A stretch of DNA of 31,777 nucleotides. It comes from a virus (taxonomy: Duplodnaviria > Caudoviricetes). Below the pieces are notes generated by a model. That model ran no database searches, was not told the DNA's origin, and was given only the letters and a program-made list of their open reading frames with translations. The number at the start of each line of letters is the position of its first letter. Position 1 is the stretch's first letter. Location of the stretch: positions 1-31,777 of IMG/VR virus record IMGVR_UViG_3300030376_004713; one strand, written 5' to 3'. The translations under genes were made by a program, and so were the position numbers. Shown here in pieces: positions 2,338-27,523 of the stretch.

Positions 2338-3903
2338 ATGGAATATAATAACCCAAGTGAGATAGTAAAGGATTTGACCTTTGGTGAACACGCCAGAGAT
2401 AGAATCATGCAAGGTGTAGAAAAACTGTCATCCGCAGTAGCTTCTACGCTAGGTGCTTCAGGAAAATGTGTAATATATGAAGATGCAATGGGTAATCCCA
2501 TCATAACTAAAGATGGTGTTACAGTTGCAGAATCTGTAGTGTTAATCAACCCGGTGGAAAATATAGGGGCTACACTAATAAAAGAAGCAGCTAAAAAAAC
2601 AGTGAGAGAAGCAGGTGACGGTACCACCACCGCAACCGTCCTTGCTCATTCTCTCCTCCAGGAAATGAACGAAGCAGCTGAAGATTACTCAATAAGAGAA
2701 ATTAAAACAGCAGTAGCGAAAGGCCTGGAAAAAGTATTAGAGTACTTAGATGAAAAAAGTATAAAGATAAAGGATGAAATGCTAGAAGATGTCGCTTCTA
2801 TATCATGTAACAACGACGTTGCGCTCGGATCGATTATAGCTGACGCTTATAAATCTGTCGGGGCTAACGGTGTTGTGTTAATGGAAGAATCTGACACAGA
2901 AGAAACATTCAGCGAAATAGTAGATGGGGTTCAATTCGACTGTGGTATAAAATCTCAGCATCTGGTAACAGATAAAGAAAAGAATAAAGCTATACTTGAA
3001 AGCCCCTACGTCCTTATCGTAGCATCTCAAATACCTAGTATTAGAAAAATACAAAGTGTGCTTGAGCATGTTATTAAAGAAAAACGCAGTCTTTTAATTG
3101 TAGCGGGTATGGATCAACAACCTATGGCTGCACTTTTAATGAACAAGGTAAAAGGCAACATCAAAGTAAACATCATTGATACACCCGGGTTTGGGGCGAC
3201 TAAGATGGACACTATGCAAGATTTAGCCACAATAACCGGAGCGCAAGTTATCAATGAAGAATTAGGAGATGATTTAGATTTAATCAATCCTGATGTTTTA
3301 GGTCAAGCTGAAAAAGCAGTAACAGATGCAACATCTACGGTTATTACTATAGATAAAATGCCAGATGAAGCAAAAGAAAGAATAGACCTAGTAAATAAAA
3401 AAATTAAAACGGAGAAGAATCCGTTTATAAAGTCTAAACTCGAACAAAGACTTGCAATGCTTTCAGGAGCTGTAGCAATATTAAAAGTTGGTGCAAACTC
3501 AAAAATAGAATTAAAAGAAAAGAAAGATAGAGTTGAAGACGCTATATATGCTGTTAAAGCAGCAATTAAAGAAGGTATAGTTTCAGGTGGAGGTGTTGCA
3601 TTACATAATGCTTCAGATAAATTAAAAGATAAGCATTCTGCTGAAAAAATCTTATGCAATGCTTTAAAAGCTCCATATAAAAAAATTTTAGAAAACGCAG
3701 GTATATCATATGGCCCTAATATGAATGAGGGCAATGGTATAGATGTTGTAACAGGAAAAGGTGTTAATATGATTAAACACGGAATTATTGACCCTGTACT
3801 TGTAACTAAAAAAGCATTAATAAATGCTGTTAGTGTAGCTACTACAATTATATCAGCTGATTGTATAATTTCAAATATTAGAGATTATGAAAGCAATCAA
3901 TAA
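2338..3903 (+). CDS. groEL: Phage-encoded group I chaperonin GroEL (521 aa)
   Basis: ITKDGVTVA, AGDGTTTATVLA, KKDRVEDA (catalytic Asp), GGGVAL and GIIDP motifs; lacks the C-terminal GGM tail. Confidence 0.98.
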   Translation: MEYNNPSEIVKDLTFGEHARDRIMQGVEKLSSAVASTLGASGKCVIYEDAMGNPIITKDGVTVAESVVLINPVENIGATLIKEAAKKTVREAGDGTTTATVLAHSLLQEMNEAAEDYSIREIKTAVAKGLEKVLEYLDEKSIKIKDEMLEDVASISCNNDVALGSIIADAYKSVGANGVVLMEESDTEETFSEIVDGVQFDCGIKSQHLVTDKEKNKAILESPYVLIVASQIPSIRKIQSVLEHVIKEKRSLLIVAGMDQQPMAALLMNKVKGNIKVNIIDTPGFGATKMDTMQDLATITGAQVINEELGDDLDLINPDVLGQAEKAVTDATSTVITIDKMPDEAKERIDLVNKKIKTEKNPFIKSKLEQRLAMLSGAVAILKVGANSKIELKEKKDRVEDAIYAVKAAIKEGIVSGGGVALHNASDKLKDKHSAEKILCNALKAPYKKILENAGISYGPNMNEGNGIDVVTGKGVNMIKHGIIDPVLVTKKALINAVSVATTIISADCIISNIRDYESNQ

Positions 3904-4144
3904 CTTTATTATAATTGAGCCTATTAAAGAAGAGCCGAAGAAAGAAGAAGGCTTGCTTATAATGGATCAACATGTAGATGACGTTAGGTACTTAAAGGCT
4001 AAAATTATATCAACTGGCAATATGACAGAAGGAATCAAAGTAAATGACATAATTTACTATGATAGAAGGGCTGGGCACGGAATAGAATACGACAACAACT
4101 TATATCAAGTTATAAGACAACAAGACGTTGTGTTAGTCGGTTAA
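3887..4144 (+). CDS. groES: Co-chaperonin GroES (85 aa)
   Basis: MKAINNFIIIEP, mobile-loop-like GLLI, GIKVNDIIYY, YQVIRQQDVV follow the Cpn10 pattern; overlaps groEL by 17 nt. Confidence 0.9.
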   Translation: MKAINNFIIIEPIKEEPKKEEGLLIMDQHVDDVRYLKAKIISTGNMTEGIKVNDIIYYDRRAGHGIEYDNNLYQVIRQQDVVLVG

Positions 4145-5197: not shown

Positions 5198-5482
5198 ATG
5201 GCTTCTAAAAACGCACCATCAAGAAAAAAATCACTTGGATATTACAATAAAGCAAACAAAACCGGCACCGGTGCTAAAGCGGGTGGAGGTATGACAAAAA
5301 AAGGTGTTGCTAAATATAGACGTGATAATCCAGGTAGTAAATTAAAGACAGCGGTAACTACGCCTCCGTCAAAATTAAAAAAAGGTAGCAAAGCTGCTAA
5401 AAGAAGAAAAGCATTTTGTGCAAGATCAAAAAGTTGGAAATCTGAAAGGGGTAGAGCTGCAAGGCGTAGATGGAATTGTTAA
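5198..5482 (+). CDS. Small basic protein (94 aa)
   Basis: GGMTKKGVAKYRRDNPGSKLKTAVT...RRKAFCARS...RRRWNC; recalled as a widespread marine phage module. Confidence 0.85.
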   Translation: MASKNAPSRKKSLGYYNKANKTGTGAKAGGGMTKKGVAKYRRDNPGSKLKTAVTTPPSKLKKGSKAAKRRKAFCARSKSWKSERGRAARRRWNC

Positions 5483-5492
5483 TATAAAAATC

Positions 5493-5627
5493 ATGAATAA
5501 AAATAAAAACAAAGATTTAGACGGATCACAAATGTTATCTCCTAAACAAAAAAGAATAGCTGGTATGGCCCCTCCATTTAATAAAATAACTGGCGCAGAC
5601 TTTAAAAAACTTAAAAAAAATAAATAA
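5493..5627 (+). CDS. 44-aa basic peptide (true start probably 5493, not 5418)
   Basis: ATG at 5493 with A-rich leader and no overlap with the upstream gene; LSPKQKRIAGMAPPFNKITGADFKKL. Confidence 0.7.
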   Translation: MNKNKNKDLDGSQMLSPKQKRIAGMAPPFNKITGADFKKLKKNK

Positions 5628-5630
5628 GAA

Positions 5631-5921
5631 ATGGCAGAACTTGACCTAGACGAAATTAAAAAGAAAAAATTCAATATTAGTGTAGAAAACCTAATTACTA
5701 TTGGTGCTGTAGTGGTTACAGTTGTAGGTATGTGGTACTCATTGCAAGCTGATATAGAACTGGCAAAAGAATTACCTGAACCACCAGTTTCAAGAACGGA
5801 ATACGATTTAAAAGATCAATTAATTAGAGAGACTATTATATCTACTGAAGAAAAAGTAGATGCTAATTCAGAAAAGCTTGATAAAATTGATGAAAAATTA
5901 TATGAAATAATTAAAAAATAA
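5631..5921 (+). CDS. Single-TM, C-terminal coiled-coil membrane protein (96 aa); possible lysis-associated protein
   Basis: Hydrophobic LITIGAVVVTVVGMWYSL, then heptad-like EKVDANSEKLDKIDEKLYEII. Confidence 0.75.
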   Translation: MAELDLDEIKKKKFNISVENLITIGAVVVTVVGMWYSLQADIELAKELPEPPVSRTEYDLKDQLIRETIISTEEKVDANSEKLDKIDEKLYEIIKK

Positions 5922-5926
5922 GTAAT

Positions 5927-6244
5927 ATGAAAAATATCATTTTAATTTTATCTTTATTTATATCTTCTTTTGCTTTTAGTCAAGATGTAACTGTTGTTCA
6001 TTTCAACTACCAATGGAATTCTCATAATGGTTTTAAAAAATTAGATAATTTAAAATCAGCAAAAGTCCAATACGCTTATGTTGAAAATCAAGGCAAAAAA
6101 TTAAGAGAGTCTATAAAATCTGTTCCAACAATAATTATATATAAGGGGGACAGACCAGTTGCAAGATTTGAAGCTGGGCTAAGTATGAAAATAGAAATAG
6201 AGTTTGACAAACTGCAAGAGATAGTTAATAAATATAAAAATTAG
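5927..6244 (+). CDS. Exported thioredoxin-fold protein lacking CxxC (105 aa)
   Basis: Sec signal MKNIILILSLFISSFAFS-Q; VVHFNYQW-NSHN where WCxxC would be; IKSVPTIIIYKGD cis-Pro motif; no Cys at all. Confidence 0.75.
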   Translation: MKNIILILSLFISSFAFSQDVTVVHFNYQWNSHNGFKKLDNLKSAKVQYAYVENQGKKLRESIKSVPTIIIYKGDRPVARFEAGLSMKIEIEFDKLQEIVNKYKN

Positions 6245-6248
6245 AGCT

Positions 6249-6383
6249 ATGCCAAAAGATGCATGTTATAAAAAAGTAAAAGCAAAATATAGAGTATTCC
6301 CGTCTGCTTATGCAAGCGGAGCAATAGCAAAATGCCGTAAAGTGGGCGCTGCTAATTGGGGTAATAAATCAAAGAAAAAATGA
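6249..6383 (+). CDS. 44-aa basic peptide MPKDACYKKVKAKYRVFPSAYASGAIAKCRKVGAANWGNKSKKK (not in ORF track)
   Basis: Translated by hand; ATGA overlap with the next ORF. Confidence 0.8.
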   Translation: MPKDACYKKVKAKYRVFPSAYASGAIAKCRKVGAANWGNKSKKK

Positions 6384-6505
6384 AAAACAAGTTTGAACCT
6401 CATATGATGTATTGCAAAAATGGTAAAGAGTATAAAGCAAATACATATAAACAACATTTAGCGTTAAAGAAAAAAGGATGTGGTCACACAAAATCTAAAA
6501 AATAA
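6380..6505 (+). CDS. 41-aa His/Cys-containing basic peptide MKNKFEPHMMYCKNGKEYKANTYKQHLALKKKGCGHTKSKK (not in ORF track)
   Basis: Translated by hand; ATGA coupling upstream and TAATG coupling downstream. Confidence 0.75.
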   Translation: MKNKFEPHMMYCKNGKEYKANTYKQHLALKKKGCGHTKSKK

Positions 6506-6780
6506 TGGCTGTTCGTAAAACAAAATCCGGTGCAAATCTTAAACGTTGGTTTAAAGAAAAGTGGATTGATGTTCGCACTGGTAAACCTTGTGGTAGACGT
6601 AAAGGTGAAAAAAGAGGTACCCCTTATTGTAGACCGAGCAAAAGAGTTTCAAGTAAAACAGTTAAAACTGCTTCAGAAATGAGTTCTTCAGAAAAATCAA
6701 AGAAGATAGCTGAGAAAAAAAGATTAGGCCAACCAGCAGGTAAGCCAAGAAGAGTGTCGAATACAAAACGAAAAAAATGA
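6505..6780 (+). CDS. Small basic protein (91 aa)
   Basis: LKRWFKEKWIDVRTGKPCGR...PYCRPSKRVS; translationally coupled on both sides. Confidence 0.85.
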   Translation: MAVRKTKSGANLKRWFKEKWIDVRTGKPCGRRKGEKRGTPYCRPSKRVSSKTVKTASEMSSSEKSKKIAEKKRLGQPAGKPRRVSNTKRKK

Positions 6781-6935
6781 AAAAGTCAAGAGGATTAGGT
6801 GACTCAATTGAAAAAATCACAAAAAAAACAGGTGTTAAAACAATGGTAGATGTAATCTCAAAAGGATTAAATGTACCTTGCGGTTGCGAGGGAAGACGTG
6901 ACGCCTTAAATACAATATTCCCTTATAAAAAATAA
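6777..6935 (+). CDS. 52-aa protein with GLGD...CGC..RR..LN..FPY motif (not in ORF track)
   Basis: Translated by hand: MKKSRGLGDSIEKITKKTGVKTMVDVISKGLNVPCGCEGRRDALNTIFPYKK; ATGA overlap with the upstream gene. Confidence 0.8.
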   Translation: MKKSRGLGDSIEKITKKTGVKTMVDVISKGLNVPCGCEGRRDALNTIFPYKK

Positions 6936-6939
6936 ATTT

Positions 6940-7134
6940 ATGAATTTTACATTAATAATAATAGCAGCTGTAGTTGTTATAATAGGTCTTATTGTTTTTT
7001 CTATTTGGTTAAATAAAAAAGGAATCACTAAAGACGATAACGATAATTACATACCAGATGTTCTTGAAGATAAAGTAAAGAATGTTAAAACTAAGGTTAA
7101 GGACATTAAGAATATAGTTAAAAAGAAAAAGTAA
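6940..7134 (+). CDS. Small N-terminally anchored membrane protein (64 aa)
   Basis: Long hydrophobic N-terminus, DDNDNYIPD acidic loop, basic tail; TAATG-coupled to the holin. Confidence 0.8.
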   Translation: MNFTLIIIAAVVVIIGLIVFSIWLNKKGITKDDNDNYIPDVLEDKVKNVKTKVKDIKNIVKKKK

Positions 7135-7592
7135 TGTCTAAAGACAAGAAAAAGCTTAAAGATACCGCTGTTGGCCGATTTTTGGCTGGAGCGGGATCAA
7201 ATATTATAGGTAGCTTAGGCGAAGTCTTGCCTGATAAAGGTGTATTAGGTTTAGTAAAAAATTTAATTAAAAAAGACCCAGAGTTACCAGCTGAGGATAA
7301 AGAAAAAGCATTAGCTCTGCTACATCAAGATACTGTAGAAATGCAAGAAGTATCAAAAAGATGGCAAGCAGACATGAAGTCAGATTCCTGGCTTTCAAAA
7401 AACACAAGGCCATTGACATTAGTTTTTTTAACTGTTGCAATGGTTTTATTAATATTTATAGACTCAACAGGATTGGATTTTGATGTAGATAGCGGTTGGG
7501 TTGATCTTTTAAAATCACTTCTCATAACGGTATATGTAGCATATTTTGGTTCACGTGGAGCTGAGAAGTTTAAAACAATACAAAACAAATAA
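7134..7592 (+). CDS. Holin, 3TM/GTA-holin-like family (152 aa)
   Basis: RWQADMKSDSWLSKNTRPL, two C-terminal hydrophobic helices, YFGSRGAEK end, typical of this holin family. Confidence 0.75.
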   Translation: MSKDKKKLKDTAVGRFLAGAGSNIIGSLGEVLPDKGVLGLVKNLIKKDPELPAEDKEKALALLHQDTVEMQEVSKRWQADMKSDSWLSKNTRPLTLVFLTVAMVLLIFIDSTGLDFDVDSGWVDLLKSLLITVYVAYFGSRGAEKFKTIQNK

Positions 7593-18811: not shown

Positions 18812-19007
18812 TATTGGAAAAAACTATAAAACAGACGCAATGCACTATGCTGTGGGGCAAGAGGTTTATGGAGGTCATACAATATGTGATATAATAGATG
18901 AAAAAGATAATTATTCTATTTACATAAAGAAAGGTGCGGATGTATTACCATGGAAAAGTTTTAATAAAAACATGGCTATATCTGTTGAGTATAATTTACA
19001 ATATTAA
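18786..19007 (+). CDS. Hypothetical protein (73 aa; start probably MSKLIRKISIG at 18786)
   Basis: Second Met shortens the overlap; TAATG-coupled to 19007. Confidence 0.8.
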   Translation: MSKLIRKISIGKNYKTDAMHYAVGQEVYGGHTICDIIDEKDNYSIYIKKGADVLPWKSFNKNMAISVEYNLQY

Positions 19008-19594
19008 TGAAACCAATTTATTCCTTTTTAATAAAACCTAAAAAAGAAAGATACGACAATACAAAAACGGTTGGAGATAAAGAGTTAATATTAAACACTG
19101 ATATATCCGATCATAAATTTGTAAGTCGTCAAGCAATAGTTTGCAAAACACCTATAGCACGTGATACACATATTAACAGAGGTGATGAGCTTTATGTTCA
19201 TCATAATATATTTCGTCGTTGGCATGATGTTAGAGGTATTGAACGCAATAGTAAAAGCTATTTCAAAGATAATTTATACTTCTGCGAACTTGAGCAAATA
19301 TTTCTTTACAAGCGTGATGGCATTTGGAAAGCGAATCAAGGATTTAGTTTTGTAAAACCTTTATCAAACAACGATGCGTTTTCAATAAACAAAGAAATGT
19401 CATTAACAGGTATTGTTAAGTACGTAGATAATACGAACAACTTTAAGGTTAATGAAAAAATAGGGTTTACTCCAGATAGTGAATATGAGTTTGTAATTGA
19501 AGGTGAAAGACTATACAGAGTAATAAATAATGAAATATCTATACGTTATGGATTTAAAGAAACAGAAAGAGAGTATAATCCAAGCTGGTTATAA
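19007..19594 (+). CDS. Tandem GroES-like (Cpn10-fold) protein (195 aa)
   Basis: Two GroES-like halves: MKPIYSFLIKP...INRGDELYV and FSFVKP...GIVKY...FKVNEKIGF...EFVIEGERLYRVINNEI (compare GroES VKVGDKVLF...EVKIDGEEYLILRESDI). Confidence 0.6.
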   Translation: MKPIYSFLIKPKKERYDNTKTVGDKELILNTDISDHKFVSRQAIVCKTPIARDTHINRGDELYVHHNIFRRWHDVRGIERNSKSYFKDNLYFCELEQIFLYKRDGIWKANQGFSFVKPLSNNDAFSINKEMSLTGIVKYVDNTNNFKVNEKIGFTPDSEYEFVIEGERLYRVINNEISIRYGFKETEREYNPSWL

Positions 19595-19820
19595 AGCGGT
19601 TGACGAATTAGTTAAAGTAGCAAAAGAAGCTATAGTTGAAACTGATGACGACGTTTCTGCTGATAGATTAAAGAATGCAGCAGCTACAAAGAAGCTTGCA
19701 ATATTCGATGCGTTCGAAATATTAAATAGAATAGAAGTTGAAAAAAACTTACTTGAAAACAAACCAACGCAAATAAAAGAAAATACATTTTCAGGGTTTG
19801 CAGAAAAAAAATCTAAATAA
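19548..19820 (+). CDS. Probable terminase small subunit (about 90 aa; start probably 19548)
   Basis: Helical protein TAATG-coupled to terL; function inferred from position only. Confidence 0.55.
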   Translation: MDLKKQKESIIQAGYKAVDELVKVAKEAIVETDDDVSADRLKNAAATKKLAIFDAFEILNRIEVEKNLLENKPTQIKENTFSGFAEKKSK

Positions 19821-22036
19821 TGTCATATCAACAAACATTATATAAGATTATTGAGCCAATTAAAAAAACTACTATTAGTAGATTGAATAAAGGCAAGAAA
19901 TGGAAGTACGGGTATAACGAAGAGCACGATGTTGTTGTTATTAGCAAGACAGGTAAAATAGGTGAAGTATATGAAATACAGAATCTACGAATAGCTTTGC
20001 CTGCTGAAAAAGATGTGTATAGCAAAAACAATAAATGGGTTCCGCATGAATATCCGCAAGAGCTTAAAAGATTAAAAACAATATTTGATTGGAGAGATTA
20101 TCCAGAAGAATTAAAAGAAAAGTGGTATGCGTACATTGATAAAGAGTTTACTCGTAGAGAAGAAGGCTATTGGTTCCTTAACAAAGGCAATAGCACTTAT
20201 ATCACTGGCACTCATTATATGTACTTGCAGTGGTCCAAGATTGATGTTGGGAAGCCAGACTTTCGAGAAGCAAACAGATTATTCTTCATATTCTGGGAAG
20301 CTTGCAAGGCAGACGCAAGATGTTATGGGATTTGCTACCTTAAGAATAGACGGTCTGGATTTAGCTTCATGTCAAGCAGCGAGACAGTTAATCAAGCTAC
20401 AATCTCATCAGATTCTAGATTCGGAATCTTATCGAAGACTGGTGCAGATGCAAAGAAAATGTTTACCGACAAGGTCGTACCAATTTCATCGCACTATCCA
20501 TTCTTCTTCAAACCAATACAAGACGGAATGGACCGTCCCAAAACAGAGTTGGCCTACCGTGTCCCAGCATCCAAACTCACAAGAAAGTCCATCACCAGTG
20601 CAACCAAATCCAAGCCCCAAGAACTCGAAGGGCTCGATACAACAATAGATTGGAAGAACACCGGGGATAACTCATATGATGGTGAGAAGTTAAAATTATT
20701 AGTTCACGATGAATCTGGTAAATGGGAAAGACCAGATAATATATTAAATAATTGGAGAGTAACAAAAACAACCCTTAGACTAGGTAGCAGGATAATAGGA
20801 AAGTGTATGATGGGATCAACATCAAACGCATTAGATAAGGGTGGTGATAACTTTAAAAAATTATATCATGCTTCAGACGTTACAAAACGAAACAGAAATG
20901 GACAAACAAGCTCTGGATTATATAGCTTATTCATACCTATGGAATGGAACTACGAAGGATTTATCGACGATTGCGGAATGCCTGTCTTTGAATCTGGAGA
21001 TACTAGCGCTCGCGACAATTATGGAGAAACAATTGGAACAGGAGTTATTGAACACTGGCAAAACGAGGCAGACGGTCTTAAAAGCGATCAAGACGCGTTA
21101 AATGAATTTTATCGTCAATTCCCGCGTACAGAAGAGCACGCGTTTAGAGACGAAACAAAAAATAGTATATTTAATTTACAAAAGATATACGAACAAATAG
21201 ATTACAATGGAGATTTAAAAAACTCCGGGTTTGTATCAAAAGGAAATTTCCAATGGGAAAATGGTGTAAAAGATAGTAAAGTTATATTTATGCCAGATTT
21301 AAAAGGAAGATTTAATGTATCGTGGATTCCGCCGGTACATATGCAAAACATTGTAATAAATAATAGAGGTAGAAAAACCCCAGGAAATGAACACTTAGGG
21401 GCTTTTGGATGTGATAGTTACGATATATCCGGAACGACAGATGGTCAAGGATCGAAAGGAGCATTGCATGGATTAACTAAGTTTAGCTTAGATGAAGCCC
21501 CTTCTAATAGTTTTTTTCTTGAATATGTTTCAAGACCTCCAACGGCAGAAATGTTTTTTGAAGATGTATTAATGGCATTAGTATTTTATGGAATGCCATT
21601 ACTTGCAGAGAACAACAAACCAAGACTTTTATATTATTTAAAAAGAAGAGGGTATAGAGGGTATTCTATGAATAGACCAGATAAAAGTTATAATAAATTA
21701 TCTATAACAGAAAAAGAAGTAGGTGGAATTCCAAACTCTTCTGAAGATATTAGGCAAGCACATGCAGCAGCTATTGAATCATATATAGACAAACATGTAG
21801 GATTAAAAGAAGACAATAACTATGGAGATCTTTATTTTGACCGTACATTAAATGATTGGGCTTTGTTTGATATAAATAAAAGAACAAAATTTGATGCAGC
21901 AATAAGTTCAGGGCTTGCAATAATGGCATGTAATAAAAATATGTATGCTCCTGCTGTAGTTAAAACAACAAAAAAATTAGAATTTGAATTTAAAAAATAC
22001 AATAATCAAGGAAGTTTTTCAAAAATATTAAAATAA
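19820..22036 (+). CDS. terL: Terminase large subunit (738 aa)
   Basis: Walker A-like LKNRRSGFS, Walker B LLVHDESGKW, coupling motif MGST, RNase H-like FGCDSYD and FDAAISSG; directly upstream of portal. Confidence 0.95.
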   Translation: MSYQQTLYKIIEPIKKTTISRLNKGKKWKYGYNEEHDVVVISKTGKIGEVYEIQNLRIALPAEKDVYSKNNKWVPHEYPQELKRLKTIFDWRDYPEELKEKWYAYIDKEFTRREEGYWFLNKGNSTYITGTHYMYLQWSKIDVGKPDFREANRLFFIFWEACKADARCYGICYLKNRRSGFSFMSSSETVNQATISSDSRFGILSKTGADAKKMFTDKVVPISSHYPFFFKPIQDGMDRPKTELAYRVPASKLTRKSITSATKSKPQELEGLDTTIDWKNTGDNSYDGEKLKLLVHDESGKWERPDNILNNWRVTKTTLRLGSRIIGKCMMGSTSNALDKGGDNFKKLYHASDVTKRNRNGQTSSGLYSLFIPMEWNYEGFIDDCGMPVFESGDTSARDNYGETIGTGVIEHWQNEADGLKSDQDALNEFYRQFPRTEEHAFRDETKNSIFNLQKIYEQIDYNGDLKNSGFVSKGNFQWENGVKDSKVIFMPDLKGRFNVSWIPPVHMQNIVINNRGRKTPGNEHLGAFGCDSYDISGTTDGQGSKGALHGLTKFSLDEAPSNSFFLEYVSRPPTAEMFFEDVLMALVFYGMPLLAENNKPRLLYYLKRRGYRGYSMNRPDKSYNKLSITEKEVGGIPNSSEDIRQAHAAAIESYIDKHVGLKEDNNYGDLYFDRTLNDWALFDINKRTKFDAAISSGLAIMACNKNMYAPAVVKTTKKLEFEFKKYNNQGSFSKILK
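20127..20648 (+). CDS. Candidate overprinted gene in the +1 frame of terL: 173-aa lipoprotein-like/membrane-anchored protein
   Basis: 173 open codons; basic N-terminus, hydrophobic AIALISLALII then CTC; Pro/Ser/Gln-rich C-terminus; coincides with a strong rise in C/G-ending terL codons. Confidence 0.55.
   Translation: MRTLIKSLLVEKKAIGSLTKAIALISLALIICTCSGPRLMLGSQTFEKQTDYSSYSGKLARQTQDVMGFATLRIDGLDLASCQAARQLIKLQSHQILDSESYRRLVQMQRKCLPTRSYQFHRTIHSSSNQYKTEWTVPKQSWPTVSQHPNSQESPSPVQPNPSPKNSKGSIQQ
20841..21101 (+). CDS. Second candidate overprinted ORF in the +1 frame of terL (up to 86 aa)
   Basis: Same frame as 20127..20648; local GC rise at about 20950-21150; amphipathic-helix-like sequence with basic C-terminus. 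Confidence 0.35.
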   Translation: MVITLKNYIMLQTLQNETEMDKQALDYIAYSYLWNGTTKDLSTIAECLSLNLEILALATIMEKQLEQELLNTGKTRQTVLKAIKTR

Positions 22037-24460
22037 ATGGCAAAGTCACACCCAACAGGATTATTCCCAAGCATGTCAGTATCTGACGCAGAAAAAGCTA
22101 GCATAGAATATGGTAAGAAAATAGGAAGAGCTATTGAGTCGGAATGGTTTAAAAAAGATTCTGGTACTTCAAGGTATCAATCTAATCGTGAAAATTTTCA
22201 TAGATTAAGATTATACGCAAGAGGCGAACAATCAATACAAAAATATAAAGATGAGTTATCAATTAATGGTGACTTGTCTTATTTAAATTTAGATTGGAAG
22301 CCAGTGCCAATTATTCCAAAATTTGTAGATATAGTAGTAAATGGTATTAGCGAAAGAACATATGATTTAAATGCTTATTCGCAAGATCCAAGTTCTGTTA
22401 AAAATCGTTCTGACTATATGGATAGTATATTAGAAGATATGAGAACTCAAAATTATAAAAATCAAGTAGGTCGAACATTTGGTATTGATATATATAAAAC
22501 AAATCAAAAAAATCTTCCAATTGACGAGTCTGAGCTTAATGTACATATGCAATTAGATTATAAACAAGGAATTGAAATTGCACAAGAAGAAGCTATCAAT
22601 AATGTTTTTGATAAAAACGATTATGAATTAACTAAAAAAAGATTAGATTATGATATAACTGTACTTGGTATGGGTTGTGTAAAAAATAGTTTTAATAAAT
22701 CTGACGGTATTGTTATTAATTATGTAGACCCCGCAGATATAGTTTATTCATTTACAGAATCCCCATATTTTGATGATTTATATTATGTAGGTGAAATAAA
22801 AAAAATAAGCATAGTTGAATTAAAAAAACAATTTCCACATATAACGGATGAAGAAATAAAAAATATAGAAGATAATGGTTTAGGATCAGGTGCTTTATTA
22901 TATAATAAATCTTATGGAGCTTTAGACGGTGACGACGACGGGTATGTTTATATTTTATATTTTGAATATAAAACATATAGAAGCCAAACTTATAAAATTA
23001 AAGAAACGCCTTCTGGGGGTAAAAAAGCAATAAAAAAAGATGACACTTTTAATCCACCTGCAGATCAAAGATCCAGATTTGAAAAAGTAGATAGAGCTAT
23101 AGAAGTATTATATAGTGGAGCAAAAATTATTGGTAGTGAAAATGTAATAGAGTGGAAAATGTCTGAAAACATGACAAGGCCTAAATCTGATACTACTAAA
23201 GTGCATATGTCATATAATATTGTTGCACCAAGAATGTATAAAGGAAGATTAGAATCTTTAGTAAGCAGAATGACTACTTTTGCTGATATGATACAGCTTA
23301 CACATTTAAAGTTGCAACAAGTACTAGCAAGAATGGTTCCTGACGGTGTATTCTTAGATGCTGATGGAATAGCAGAAGTAGATTTAGGTAATGGAACAAA
23401 TTATAATCCTCAAGAAGCACTTAATATGTTTTTTCAAACAGGTTCTGTTATTGGAAGATCAATGACTCAGGATGGAGAATTTAATAACGGAAGAGTTCCT
23501 ATTCAAGAATTACAAAGCGGAAGCGGAGGTGGAAAAATTTCAGCGTTAATTACAGCATATAATTATTATTTGCAAAACATGAGAGATGTTACGGGATTAA
23601 ATGAAGCAAGGGACGGTTCGTTGCCTGATAAAAATTCTTTGGTAGGGTTGCAAAAAATCGCGGCAGCTAATTCTAATACTGCTACACGTCATATATTACA
23701 AGCAGGATTATTTCTTACTTTAAAAACAGCAGAGTGTATAAGCTTAAGAGTTTCAGATGTATTAGAATACGCAAATATGAATAATAGTTTTATAAATTCT
23801 TTAGGAAGATTTAATGTAGCTAACTTAAAAGAAGTAAAGGATTTATATTTACATGATTTTGGAATATACTTAGAGTTAGCCCCTGATGATGAAGAAAAAG
23901 CTATATTAGAAAATAATATTCAAATGACTTTAACTAAAGAACAAATATCTCTTGAAGACGCTATTGATATTAGAGAAGTTAAAAATTTAAAACTTGCAAA
24001 TCAATTATTAAAATTAAGAAGAAGAAAAAAAATTGAACAAGACCAAGCTATTTCTGCAAGAAATATTGAACTACAATCTGAAGCAAATGCAAAATCAGCG
24101 GAAGCAGCTGCAGCGGCAGATATTCAAAAAAATCAAGTTGTTACAGAAAGTAAGGTAAAAATGAGTCAAGCTCAAACACAATTTGATATTCAAAAGTTAG
24201 AAAGGGAAGCTGCTATTAAAAAAGAACTCATGTTGCATGAATTCCAATTAAACGTAAAGCTTAAAGAAATGGATTTACGAGTGATTAATGATAAAGATAA
24301 GTATCGTGAAGATAGAAAAGATGATAGAACAAAAATACAAGCTTCTCAGCAGTCTGAATTAATAGAACAAAGAAAAAATAATACACCGCCAAAAAACTTT
24401 GAATCCGCTGGATTTGATACTTTAGGTGGGTTTGGATTAGAACAATTTGATCCTAAATAA
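22037..24460 (+). CDS. Portal protein (807 aa)
   Basis: Between terL and scaffold/capsid genes; LDWKPVPIIPKFVDIVVNG, RDVTGLNEARDG, long C-terminal coiled coil as in crAss-like/P22-type portals. Confidence 0.9.
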   Translation: MAKSHPTGLFPSMSVSDAEKASIEYGKKIGRAIESEWFKKDSGTSRYQSNRENFHRLRLYARGEQSIQKYKDELSINGDLSYLNLDWKPVPIIPKFVDIVVNGISERTYDLNAYSQDPSSVKNRSDYMDSILEDMRTQNYKNQVGRTFGIDIYKTNQKNLPIDESELNVHMQLDYKQGIEIAQEEAINNVFDKNDYELTKKRLDYDITVLGMGCVKNSFNKSDGIVINYVDPADIVYSFTESPYFDDLYYVGEIKKISIVELKKQFPHITDEEIKNIEDNGLGSGALLYNKSYGALDGDDDGYVYILYFEYKTYRSQTYKIKETPSGGKKAIKKDDTFNPPADQRSRFEKVDRAIEVLYSGAKIIGSENVIEWKMSENMTRPKSDTTKVHMSYNIVAPRMYKGRLESLVSRMTTFADMIQLTHLKLQQVLARMVPDGVFLDADGIAEVDLGNGTNYNPQEALNMFFQTGSVIGRSMTQDGEFNNGRVPIQELQSGSGGGKISALITAYNYYLQNMRDVTGLNEARDGSLPDKNSLVGLQKIAAANSNTATRHILQAGLFLTLKTAECISLRVSDVLEYANMNNSFINSLGRFNVANLKEVKDLYLHDFGIYLELAPDDEEKAILENNIQMTLTKEQISLEDAIDIREVKNLKLANQLLKLRRRKKIEQDQAISARNIELQSEANAKSAEAAAAADIQKNQVVTESKVKMSQAQTQFDIQKLEREAAIKKELMLHEFQLNVKLKEMDLRVINDKDKYREDRKDDRTKIQASQQSELIEQRKNNTPPKNFESAGFDTLGGFGLEQFDPK

Positions 24461-24478
24461 TAATTAAATAATAAAAAA

Positions 24479-24796
24479 ATGGGTAAAGTAGTAAAAAACG
24501 ATTGGACCGGTAGTATAAACGGGTCAGCATACACAACAGCTAGTTCTGCTGCAATAACACCAACATCGGGAAATGTTTGGGTAGCAATAACAATGTTATC
24601 TGATACGGTTTTTGATAGCGCAAGCGGGTTGGTTGCAGAAAGTGCAACAACTTATGTTAACACAGAAGGCATTGGAGCAGGAGCTGCAGGCTTAGTCGTT
24701 GACAGTGTAACATTCCCAAAAGGAGTAACAATTTATGGTCGTTGGACTGAAATTGATGTAAACTCTGGAACTATTGTTGCATATCAAGGAGCATAA
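24479..24796 (+). CDS. Small beta-rich protein, probably virion-associated (105 aa)
   Basis: Thr/Ser/Gly/Ala-rich; VTFPKGVTIYGRWTEIDVNSGTIVAY; lies in the head module. Confidence 0.75.
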   Translation: MGKVVKNDWTGSINGSAYTTASSAAITPTSGNVWVAITMLSDTVFDSASGLVAESATTYVNTEGIGAGAAGLVVDSVTFPKGVTIYGRWTEIDVNSGTIVAYQGA

Positions 24797-24847
24797 GGTT
24801 AATTATTCTTACCTTTATAAAAAGAATAAAAACAATTATATTATATT

Positions 24848-26050
24848 ATGTCAGAAGAAATAAAAGCAAAGGTTGTAGAAGATGAAAATCCGTCTACAGC
24901 TGAAAAAGAAACTAAAGTTCTTAAAAAAATGGGGCTTGATACTGGAACCGAAACGGTTACCAAAGTAGATTTAAGAAAACCTAAAAAAGAAAAAGATGCC
25001 ATTCAAGAGCAAAGCACAGATGAGGTTCTTGTACGCGACGAATCCAGCGTTAGCGAAAAAGTTCAAGAAAAAAACGAAACGCAGCTTGAAAAGTCTACCG
25101 AACAAAGCGAAGAAGAAAAAGAAACGATAATTGAAGAAGTTTCGCAGGAAGAACAACCAAAGACTGAAATAAAAAAAGAAGAGCCTGTTGTACAAAAAAA
25201 AGAAGAGGCTCAACCGGAATTTAATATACCTGATGGAGTAACAGAGCTAGTTAATTTTATGAATGAAACTGGAGGCTCTATGGAAGATTATATTAAATTA
25301 AATAAAAATTATTCAGAATTAGACGAAAACAATTTACTTAAAGAGTATTATAACAATACAAAGCCTCATTTAAATACGGAGGAAGTAAATTTTTTAATTG
25401 ACGATAAATTTTCTTTTAATGAAGAATTAGATGACCCTATCGAAATAAAAAGAAAGCAATTAGCTTTTAAAGAAGAATTAGCAAATGCTAAAAATCATTT
25501 AGAAGGTCAAAAAGAAAAATACTATAAAGAAGTTAAAACTACAGGTGCTTTAAGCGCGGAGCAGCAAAAAGCTGTTAACTTTTTTAATAGATACAATACT
25601 GAGCAACAAGAAATTGCTCACCAACAAGAAAAAGCGACAAATACGTTTAACCAAAAAACAAATGAAGTTTTTAATCAAGAATTCAAAGGTTTTGATTTCA
25701 ACATTGAAGATAAAAAATATAGGTTTAAACTAAAAGATGTAAATAAAATTAAAAATACTCAAAGCAATGTAATGAACGTTTTAGGTAGTTACCTAGATGA
25801 TAAAAATACATTAAAAGATGGGTATGGTTATCATAAAGCATTATTTGCCGCAAAAAACGCTGATAGCATTGCAAATCATTTTTATCAGCTTGGTAAAACA
25901 GAAGCCGTAAAGGAAATCTCAGCAGAGTCCAAAAATATAAATATGGACCCAAGACAGACTAGTACCGGTTATGTTGAATCAGGAGGAATAAAAGTAAGAG
26001 CAATATCAGGAGACGATAGCTCAAAGCTACGTATTAAGTTAAAAAAATAA
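24848..26050 (+). CDS. Probable capsid scaffolding protein (400 aa)
   Basis: Glu-rich disordered N-terminus, helical core, basic C-terminal tip; directly upstream of the major capsid gene. Confidence 0.7.
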   Translation: MSEEIKAKVVEDENPSTAEKETKVLKKMGLDTGTETVTKVDLRKPKKEKDAIQEQSTDEVLVRDESSVSEKVQEKNETQLEKSTEQSEEEKETIIEEVSQEEQPKTEIKKEEPVVQKKEEAQPEFNIPDGVTELVNFMNETGGSMEDYIKLNKNYSELDENNLLKEYYNNTKPHLNTEEVNFLIDDKFSFNEELDDPIEIKRKQLAFKEELANAKNHLEGQKEKYYKEVKTTGALSAEQQKAVNFFNRYNTEQQEIAHQQEKATNTFNQKTNEVFNQEFKGFDFNIEDKKYRFKLKDVNKIKNTQSNVMNVLGSYLDDKNTLKDGYGYHKALFAAKNADSIANHFYQLGKTEAVKEISAESKNINMDPRQTSTGYVESGGIKVRAISGDDSSKLRIKLKK

Positions 26051-26074
26051 TAATAATTTAAATATAAATATAAA

Positions 26075-27523
26075 ATGGCAGCAATAACTCCATCAGCTGG
26101 AAGCTCGTTAAACTCAACGCCAGCACCAGCTAAACAGACATTATCGTCTAACTACCTATCATTTACAGGTGGTTCTAACGATTGGTCTCAGCAGTATTTA
26201 CCAGACTTATATGAGCAAGAAGTAGAAGTATTTGGAAACAGATCTATAGCTTCTTTCTTAAGAATGGTAAGCGCTGAAATGCCTATGACTTCTGACCAAG
26301 TAGTTTGGTCTGAGCAAGGTAGACTACACTTACACTACAAAGGTGCAGCAGTAGCTAACACCGGTGTAATTACAATTGCATCTTCAGGAACTCACGCAGT
26401 AAGAGTTGGACAAACTATCGTGCTTAGCGATAACCAAACTTCTCCTACAGTAATTAAAGCGTATGTTTCTGCAGTAGCAGCGGACAACACAACTCTAACG
26501 GCAATTCCTTATACAGGAGGTGCTACAGTAGGAGCTGTGTCTGGTTTCGTAACAACAGATGACGATGGTACAGCAACTTGTGATTTATTCGTGTATGGTT
26601 CTGAATTTAAAAAGGGAACATCAGGAATGACAAACGCGGTACAACCATCTTTTGCTTCTTTAACTAATAAGCCAATTATCATTAAAGATAAGTATGAAGT
26701 TTCAGGATCTGATTCTTCTCAAATTGGATGGGTTGAAGTAACAGGAGAACAAGGACAGTCAGGTTACTTATGGTACTTAAAAGCTGAAGGTGACACAAGA
26801 CAAAGATTCGAGGATAACCTTGAAATGGCAATGATTGAAGGTGAATTAGCAAAAGCAGCTGGTGGTGTTGACTCACAACTAGGTACTGCTGGATCTGATG
26901 ACACTGCAGGTACAGAAGGTCTTTTTGCAGCAGTAACTGCAAGAGGTCACATTACAACTGGTATCGCTGGAACATCGCCAACAGATGACTTAGGTTCGTT
27001 TGATAACATTCTTAAGAAATTTGATGCTCAAGGTGCAATCGAAGAAAACATGTTATTCATTAATAGAGACGTATCTCTAGCGATTGATGATATGTTAGCA
27101 ACACAAAATTCTTACGGTGCAGGTGGTACATCTTACGGTGTATTTTCTAACAGTGAGGATATGGCGCTTAACTTAGGTTTTTCTGGTTTTAGAAGAGGTT
27201 CTTATGACTTCTACAAAACTGACTGGAAATACTTAAACGATGGGTCAACAAGAGGTATTATTGAAAACGACGTAAGAGGTATAATTGTGCCAGCTGGTAC
27301 ATCTACTGTTTATGACCAAATTCTTGGTAAAAACATTAAAAGACCTTTCTTACACGTAAGATATAGAGCTTCACAATCAGATGATAGAAAAATGAAATCT
27401 TGGACAACTGGATCAGTTGGAGGAAACTTCACTTCAGATTTAGACGCAATGGAGGTTCACTACCTATCAGAAAGATGTTTAATTACTCAAGGCGCTAATA
27501 ACTTTATGTTATTAACTTCTTAA
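26075..27523 (+). CDS. Major capsid protein (482 aa)
   Basis: Position after portal and scaffold, strong terminator downstream, high-expression codon style, motifs WSEQGRLH, GYLWYLK, GTEGLF, LGFSGFRRGSYDFYK, HYLSERCL recognised from Bacteroidota phage capsids. Confidence 0.9.
   Translation: MAAITPSAGSSLNSTPAPAKQTLSSNYLSFTGGSNDWSQQYLPDLYEQEVEVFGNRSIASFLRMVSAEMPMTSDQVVWSEQGRLHLHYKGAAVANTGVITIASSGTHAVRVGQTIVLSDNQTSPTVIKAYVSAVAADNTTLTAIPYTGGATVGAVSGFVTTDDDGTATCDLFVYGSEFKKGTSGMTNAVQPSFASLTNKPIIIKDKYEVSGSDSSQIGWVEVTGEQGQSGYLWYLKAEGDTRQRFEDNLEMAMIEGELAKAAGGVDSQLGTAGSDDTAGTEGLFAAVTARGHITTGIAGTSPTDDLGSFDNILKKFDAQGAIEENMLFINRDVSLAIDDMLATQNSYGAGGTSYGVFSNSEDMALNLGFSGFRRGSYDFYKTDWKYLNDGSTRGIIENDVRGIIVPAGTSTVYDQILGKNIKRPFLHVRYRASQSDDRKMKSWTTGSVGGNFTSDLDAMEVHYLSERCLITQGANNFMLLTS

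Follow-up and report, generated by a model that had tools for sequence, protein, structure and literature searches.

In a 31,777-nucleotide stretch of a tailed-virus genome (Caudoviricetes; IMG/VR record IMGVR_UViG_3300030376_004713; hereafter the window), the gene for the terminase large subunit, terL, carries a long open reading frame (ORF) in the +1 frame of its ATPase part. By comparing relatives in which this frame is open with relatives in which it is closed, we conclude that the nested ORF is very probably a real protein-coding gene that originated by overprinting. An earlier note, made from the letters of the window alone, had proposed an overprinted gene with a lipoprotein-type leader, and the comparative data strongly support that proposal. 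The product is probably lipidated. More tentatively, it could act in host lysis, where it would stand in for an outer-membrane protein resembling a beta-barrel.

The +1 frame of terL and its relatives

From stop to stop, the nested frame spans 177 codons, against 70 for the longest +1 stretch in 33 other tested genes of the window, and the ORF coordinates and translation confirm the 173 stop-free codons that had been reported (Table 1). We ran the codon-permutation test of ORF length that had been called for: an open stretch this long was found in 0/20000 synonymous shuffles of terL, in 1/20000 resamplings from genome codon usage and in 1/20000 shuffles of codon order. The G+C counts that had drawn attention to the region (63/120 inside the frame, against 19/60 and 18/60 outside it) are exact. 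Likewise, G+C at third codon positions (GC3) is 0.45 within the nested ORF and 0.22 outside it, and the reported reversion right after the +1 stop is seen as a GC3 of 0.23. Within the ORF, a +1 stop is avoided at 13/13 junctions where a synonymous codon would create one; elsewhere in the window's terL, such a stop is used at 38 of the 62 junctions that allow it.

The first relatives were the best 80 of 600 matching loci, at 70-94% identity, which made 81 sequences with the window. In 44 of the 81, terL codons 107-257 are free of +1 stops, although the codon usage of these sequences predicts 5-10 of them, and five further sequences have a shorter ORF (117-137 aa) with the leader intact. With 33 loci added, the set grew to 114, one of which lacked codon 103; after dereplication at 90%, 98 relatives remained. 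We call the frame open if it has no +1 stop over terL codons 110-223, so that open relatives have zero stops there by definition; it is open in 60/98 and closed in 38/98. Past this defining span, over codons 224-257, open relatives use a stop at 11/148 possible junctions and closed ones at 34/81, the share elsewhere being about 0.6, and the GC3 shift is found in 54/60 open but 0/38 closed relatives. These and the following counts of features in the two groups are not independent of one another. In the seven independent (starred) pairs, the features listed are concordant and almost never opposite, with p 0.016 for the GC3 shift.

The frame is open in none of 82 distant terminases at 45-65% identity, which comprise 80 sister-clade loci (60-65%) and the Manatee Spring and elemo records, and some of which have a GC3 of 0.5-0.7. 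All of 17 further terminases, at 42-48% identity, are closed as well. In trees with outgroups, the open ORF is confined to one terL clade of 96 rows (support 100) and is present in all three of its deep branches. Since the frame is limited to this clade, it would have arisen by overprinting and been lost repeatedly later. The open or closed state changes 9, 10 and 11-12 times on trees from three different parts of terL, and the simplest reading is a single birth followed by about 9-12 losses.

The earlier note had also proposed examining aligned terL relatives for a conserved open frame and for suppressed synonymous variation. The first expectation held, as the frame is kept in 60/98; the second held only at terL codons 121-150, where synonymous diversity in open relatives is lowered to a ratio of 0.63-0.68 versus closed ones, and not beyond, with ratios of 0.89 at codons 151-165 and 1.05-1.34 at codons 166-330. 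The frame is open beyond chance, its range is narrower than that of terL and it bears protein-level constraint, strong at codons 121-150 and compositional in the tail. This is the combination expected of a de novo overprinted gene.

It is very improbable that no protein is made and that the open stretch instead reflects a GC-rich recombinant segment, an RNA structure, a DNA signal such as a pac site or promoter, or sequence read only by frameshifting from terL. Outgroups with high GC3 are all closed, which argues against a by-product of base composition, and shuffles using local codon usage give a mean probability of an open frame of 0.006. The trees from the three terL parts speak against a single recombinant block, and an RNA structure is not supported, as none is conserved over the ORF (structure conservation index at most 0.10). 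Promoter scans gave nothing above chance, and bases that are silent in both frames vary freely, as at Leu136 (see below). A contig from an RNA run covers 20105-20809 but cannot reveal which frame is used. Several database proteins are fusions of terL to the +1 frame, which would fit frameshifting; however, the T-run at the fusion junction does not occur in the window and shows no enrichment among open relatives, and entry by frameshifting is not supported, as a conserved slippery site was not found. Of the outcomes that the earlier note had named as contrary to its idea, a GC shift explained by recombination or by an RNA structure is not supported.

Three of the fused database proteins (P0083, P0087 and P0120) join terL to the +1 frame at a similar T-run, at about terL codons 116-117; the fusions are more likely assembly or gene-caller indels. 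A second +1 stretch in terL, 88 codons long (20841-21101), looks forced by terL residues, since many closed relatives have their longest +1 stretch in this same region and GC3 there is equal in both groups. In open relatives, stops are as frequent as expected in the +2 frame and in each of the three reverse frames. The +2 frame inside the overlap is open for 83 codons in the window (20416-20668) and is unconserved (562 stops versus 531 expected in open relatives).

Leader and tail of the nested protein

The hydrophobic AIALISLALII, the C-T-C-S-G and the tail rich in Ser, Gln and Pro are all present as first described. An ATG lies at terL codons 100-109 in 54/60 open versus 12/38 closed relatives, and Lys or Arg precedes the hydrophobic core in 52/60 versus 14/38. 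Shifts of the start compensate for one another: either an ATG at codon 103 goes with the absence of a stop at 106 (16/40), or a stop at 106 goes with an ATG at 107 or 108 (16/40). Five others with the stop at 106 have a TTG available at 110, and most of these also have an ATG at 122. The mean Kyte-Doolittle (KD) hydropathy of the core is 2.78 in open and 0.87 in closed relatives, exceeding 2 in 58/60 versus 5/38. It had been cautioned that T-ending terL codons give hydrophobic +1 residues for free; because closed relatives with the same terL residues score only 0.87, the core is not such a by-product. In an AlphaFold2 (AF2) model of the nested protein, the leader helix at the core is the sole confident helix, and the model is uninformative beyond it (mean predicted local distance difference test score, pLDDT, 51).

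Selection is also apparent in the terL codons beneath the leader. Thr129 is ACT in 60/60 open versus 12/38 closed relatives, and Leu136 is TTG (37) or CTG (20) in 57/60 open relatives, where both codons give a +1 Cys and the first base is free. This Cys, C34, is found in 57/60 open versus 14/38 closed relatives, the preceding T33 in 59/60 versus 16/38, and T-C-S as a whole in 50/60 versus 3/38. In four open relatives terL Met134 is changed (4/60 versus 0/38 closed), with C32 lost and C34 kept; the reverse is seen in three. With Tyr135 in terL, the -1 residue can only be T or I; open relatives have T, the smaller of the two, while C-S-C, with the canonical S at -1, occurs in 4 of the 120 database proteins listed. 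The lipobox consensus is [LVI][ASTVI][GAS]C, and deviant lipoboxes can function (PMC6139136). The basic n-region, short hydrophobic core and conserved Cys are features of Sec/signal peptidase II (SPII) substrates, and we consider lipidation probable.

Alternatively, the protein could be exported without being lipidated. It could remain uncleaved as an anchor in the inner membrane, with C34 forming a disulfide, or be a periplasmic product of signal peptidase I (SPI), and have another envelope role such as lysis timing. The T at -1 is indeed non-canonical, the n-region is long (16-20 aa) and 3/60 open relatives lack C34. However, some 11 hydrophobic residues are short for a transmembrane (TM) helix. 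In addition, Bacteroidetes SPI substrates mostly expose Gln after cleavage (PMC5837995), but Gln occurs at codons 135-140 in just 4/60 open relatives, and an SPI product would leave the selection on T, C and S together unexplained. We thus regard a non-lipidated product as unlikely.

In the conserved segment after the Cys, SGPRLMLGSQTFEK, the Pro is found in 45/60 open versus 0/38 closed relatives and the Gly in 50/60 versus 3/38. In surface lipoproteins of Bacteroidetes, the Cys is followed by an acidic signal for export, K-(D/E)2 or SDDxx (PMC5080379). In all 60 open relatives, Asp and Glu are absent from positions +2 to +7, so that by this rule the protein is predicted to face the periplasm, and we rejected a surface-exposed lipoprotein of the Bacteroidetes type.

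The tail that follows differs between the two groups in composition: Leu, Ile, Val, Phe and Met make up 28% in open versus 44% in closed frames, and Pro, Ser, Thr and Gly 24% versus 11%, while charge is equal. In the window, the mature part (140 aa) has 15% Ser, 13% Gln and 7% Pro; among relatives, it has 88-185 residues and the ORF ends at terL codons 224-321. Selection on the tail appears to act on hydrophilicity and on a minimum length of 88 residues, but not on sequence or charge. A lytic cationic peptide is ruled out because Lys plus Arg amounts to 13.7% in open and closed frames alike. A u-spanin of the T1 gp11 type was likewise rejected: in place of a C-terminal TM helix, the tail is hydrophilic with variable ends. 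At the position of terL codon 204 (20430-20432; Tyr in the window), Cys is enriched in open relatives (59% versus 9% closed), ten residues before a forced Cys, which suggests a possible disulfide.

Searches with the nested protein gave no match above 0.83 in the ESM Atlas, no PHROG or Pfam family, no NCBIfam family in more than one of 45 members, and nothing by tblastn against annotated phages. A profile search returned 249 proteins, 120 of which were listed, and 21/21 that we examined in full were of the nested type or terL fusions.

Lysis cassette and possible function

Table 1. Features of the window, with two examples of the barrel-like gene from related genomes
Feature	Position	Strand	Basis
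terL, terminase large subunit, 738 aa, ancestral frame	19820..22036	+	phrog_6681, E 2e-164
Overprinted +1 ORF, ATG start, 173 aa, inside ATPase part of terL (terL codons 103-276)	20127..20648	+	
ATG and n-region ending in conserved basic K20	20127..20186	+	ATG and K/R counts in relatives
Hydrophobic core IALISLALII of predicted signal peptide	20190..20219	+	KD, AF2
Lipobox-like C32-T33-C34 (C34, predicted lipidated Cys)	20220..20228	+	conservation in relatives
Conserved segment after Cys, SGPRLMLGSQTFEK, without acidic surface-export signal	20229..20270	+	
Variable hydrophilic tail, predicted disordered	20271..20645	+	composition, pLDDT mostly <50
KNRRSGFS of terL, overlapped by nested ORF	20342..20365	+	window sequence
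N-terminal TM and coiled-coil-like protein (TM-coil), 96 aa, i-spanin-like candidate partner; no adjoining barrel in window	5631..5921	+	
Cys-less secreted thioredoxin-like protein (Sec/SPI, with Gln exposed by cleavage), constant neighbour of TM-coil gene	5927..6244	+	PF00085, E 0.17 (weak)
Holin	7134..7592	+	phrog_3427, E 2.5e-20
Barrel-like gene, example in L183	2710-3756	-	
Barrel-like gene, example in G001	49861-51057		

The virus record is 53% complete, and the window carries genes for GroEL/GroES, holin, terL, portal and crAss-muzzle-like virion proteins. The terL product is 46% identical to that of Elemovirus (Flavobacterium elemo phages) and about 37% identical to Cellulophaga phage terminases, so the host is likely a flavobacterium; the public runs that match the window best are seawater and viral metagenomes, and an estimated ~14,000 IMG/VR stretches match terL peptide patterns. 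There is no sequence relative of terL in the PDB. Its KNRRSGFS is presumably the Walker A region. The GroEL and GroES genes (2338-4144) are accompanied by a second, double-length GroES-like gene (19007-19594) just 5' of terS/terL.

The TM-coil gene is present in 7/7 genomes that are at least 90% complete, and its product matches no spanin family. Directly upstream of it, in 95/153 loci and often together with an endolysin gene, lies a gene for an unannotated barrel-like protein of 350-400 aa, with a signal peptide (Gln-type or lipobox-like) and a C-terminal end resembling a beta-signal; the gene also occurs in more distant phages. Among named ESM clusters, those closest to it are of outer-membrane barrels (0.93), and an AF2 model from the single sequence is uninformative (pLDDT 32). 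The barrel, TM-coil and thioredoxin-like genes are possibly an undescribed outer-membrane lysis module. In the window fragment the TM-coil gene and holin are present, and the barrel gene and an endolysin were not found.

Several other genes of the cassette and its counterparts deserve mention. A 64-aa N-terminal TM protein encoded before the holin (6940-7134) weakly matches an Rz-like spanin PHROG (E 0.028) and is a second i-spanin candidate, and very basic, lysine-rich small ORFs (DUF6321, DUF5872 and others) flank the cassette at 5198-5627 and 6249-6935. The TM-coil/thioredoxin-like pair is duplicated around the barrel in G013 (23809-26315) and G033, while G036 has two TM-coil-like copies without a barrel gene. 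In the Manatee Spring and elemo outgroups, a protein of 181-207 aa with an N-terminal hydrophobic segment, a C-terminal beta-strand-like end and no Pfam match (L081:3491-4114, L082:6189-6734) may span the envelope alone; in L081 its gene directly precedes the endolysin.

We searched 80 genomes for the barrel gene and scored 68, leaving out three outgroups, eight without either cassette marker on the contig (G002, G003, G004, G018, G006, G008, G009 and G012) and G034, where the contig breaks off within the cassette. Four have an open nested frame and a barrel gene, 21 an open frame only, 43 a closed frame and a barrel gene, and none has neither. In the same order, the counts are 1/4/15/0 for genomes at least 90% complete and 2/9/10/0 for the subset with an unrelated small lipoprotein. 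In G033, one of the four with both, the barrel gene has an internal stop, and in G047, a sister of a genome with both, the nested frame is cut at codon 190.

These observations lead us to a tentative model, well short of established, in which a periplasm-facing outer-membrane lipoprotein replaces the barrel-like protein as the outer-membrane partner of the i-spanin-like TM-coil protein in lysis. Comparison shows that the +1 frame is open beyond chance and selected. The gene would have arisen on the stem lineage of a single marine clade, with about 9-12 losses since, and would be translated from its own ATG on a late transcript. Sec would export its product, which would receive its lipid at C34 and be cleaved by signal peptidase II. 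In the weakest step, the conserved 15-20 residues after the Cys and the long hydrophilic tether would reach the TM-coil protein. The two genes have largely complementary distributions in the genomes scored, perhaps because the nested protein duplicated the barrel's job, so that lineages kept one or the other. The simplest reading of a function that is never seen missing, is encoded late and pairs an outer-membrane location with a link to a coiled coil in the inner membrane is a spanin-like one; we find such a role plausible, with the complementary distribution as indirect support. In its fullest form the idea is more doubtful: that a de novo lipoprotein displaced the barrel from an undescribed flavobacterial spanin system of inner-membrane coiled coil and outer-membrane barrel, and that reciprocal loss is ongoing in one abundant ocean phage clade.

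Several points weigh against this replacement model. No sequence is conserved along the tail, which is 2-4 times as long as mature Rz1, and I-C-T-C, with T at -1, falls outside the lipobox consensus. Of the sequence features listed for the seven pairs, the GC3 shift alone reached p<0.05. The tree-corrected barrel test gave 4.2 concordant and 0 opposite of six starred pairs (p 0.125), and 33 of the 43 closed genomes belong to a single clade, 31 of them picked via TM-coil genes neighbouring a barrel. Small lipoproteins are common in open genomes: 13/24 genomes picked for one such family, encoded beside the endolysin or TM-coil gene, are open. In G062 and G065, two close relatives with nearly complete genomes, the M15 endolysin is immediately followed by an 81-aa lipoprotein, in the classic place for an o-spanin. 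No TM-coil gene is seen in the open genomes G002 (82% complete) and G018, and the closed G009 (a 57% contig) has another lysis cassette, with neither the barrel nor the TM-coil family. As for a small free lipoprotein (alignment A3) being what the nested ORF replaced, this is ruled out by the same 13/24 carriers being open (12/23 without the weak G057 match), on several branches.

The main rival is that the overprinted lipoprotein blocks or occupies a host receptor, a job shared with the barrel it replaced, and so provides superinfection exclusion or protects progeny from receptor on debris. Receptor blocking would account for the complementarity of nested gene and barrel without a TM-coil partner, fits G002 and G018 as well as the separate small lipoproteins beside the endolysin, and is compatible with a periplasm-facing location. 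Nevertheless, the complemented barrel gene belongs to a fixed cassette that includes the TM-coil gene and, in many cases, an endolysin, exclusion is usually dispensable yet 0/68 genomes lack both genes, the nested protein has no family match, and exclusion genes are often early, so we judge receptor blocking rather unlikely. Less likely still, the nested gene could encode a real lipoprotein with an unrelated accessory role, its complementarity with the barrel reflecting a shared history of modules rather than replacement. Such a history would fit the small number of independent events (7 and 9 changes, p 0.125), the biased sampling and the mosaic genomes. However, the two genes are 14-30 kb apart, the pattern appears in several separate branches with no opposite pair, and one partner is decaying in G033 and G047.

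Whatever its function, the nested gene, which gene callers overlook, provides a large natural series with an outgroup in which an overprinted gene can be seen to arise, change in length and be lost repeatedly within the sequence of a highly conserved enzyme domain; the protein of the ancestral frame is itself recoded in places (the terL Met134 changes). If the replacement model is true, a folded barrel has been supplanted in its task by a disordered protein of de novo origin, and the cassette hints at how flavobacterial podophages breach the outer membrane.

Comparison with known systems

The earlier note had likened the product to Rz1. O-spanins are lipoproteins, often embedded out of frame, that need little structure (PMC6139136), and the nested gene resembles lambda Rz1 in Rz and T7 gp18.7 in gp18.5 in its lipoprotein-type leader, its +1 nesting, its low-structure mature part enriched in Pro and Ser, and its late lysis context (PMC6139136). 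It differs in that its host gene is terL and not an i-spanin gene, the candidate partner being 14 kb away, in that its mature part has 88-185 aa versus 40 with no sequence match, and in that it complements a beta-barrel-like gene, which corresponds to no spanin class in the portion of PMC6139136 available to us. Since the gene is neither in nor beside an i-spanin gene and matches no spanin family, membership of the Rz1 type was not borne out. Likewise, nothing beyond shared late transcription favours the suggested coupling of envelope function to packaging.

The nested protein also has no sequence match to T5 Llp or phi80 Cor, small phage exclusion lipoproteins that act at the outer membrane, are folded and are encoded by free-standing rather than overprinted genes. 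The statement that no such case had been described stands in part. The T7 terL gene holds two hypothetical ORFs, 19.2 and 19.3, annotated in the +1 frame of the terminase large-subunit gene like the nested ORF; unlike it, they have 85 and 57 aa, show no evident signal peptide or lipobox and belong to an unrelated terminase family. For a nested lipoprotein, our literature searches, whose coverage stopped short of subscription journals and supplements, found no description. In the available part of PMC8776804, spanins are named only for other phage families. In that of PMC8227390, cases of de novo overprinting are mostly from eukaryotic viruses and the word terminase does not occur. Still, it is the genes reviewed there that the nested ORF resembles in its restricted range, its atypical codon usage and its disorder-prone, fast-evolving product (PMC8227390).

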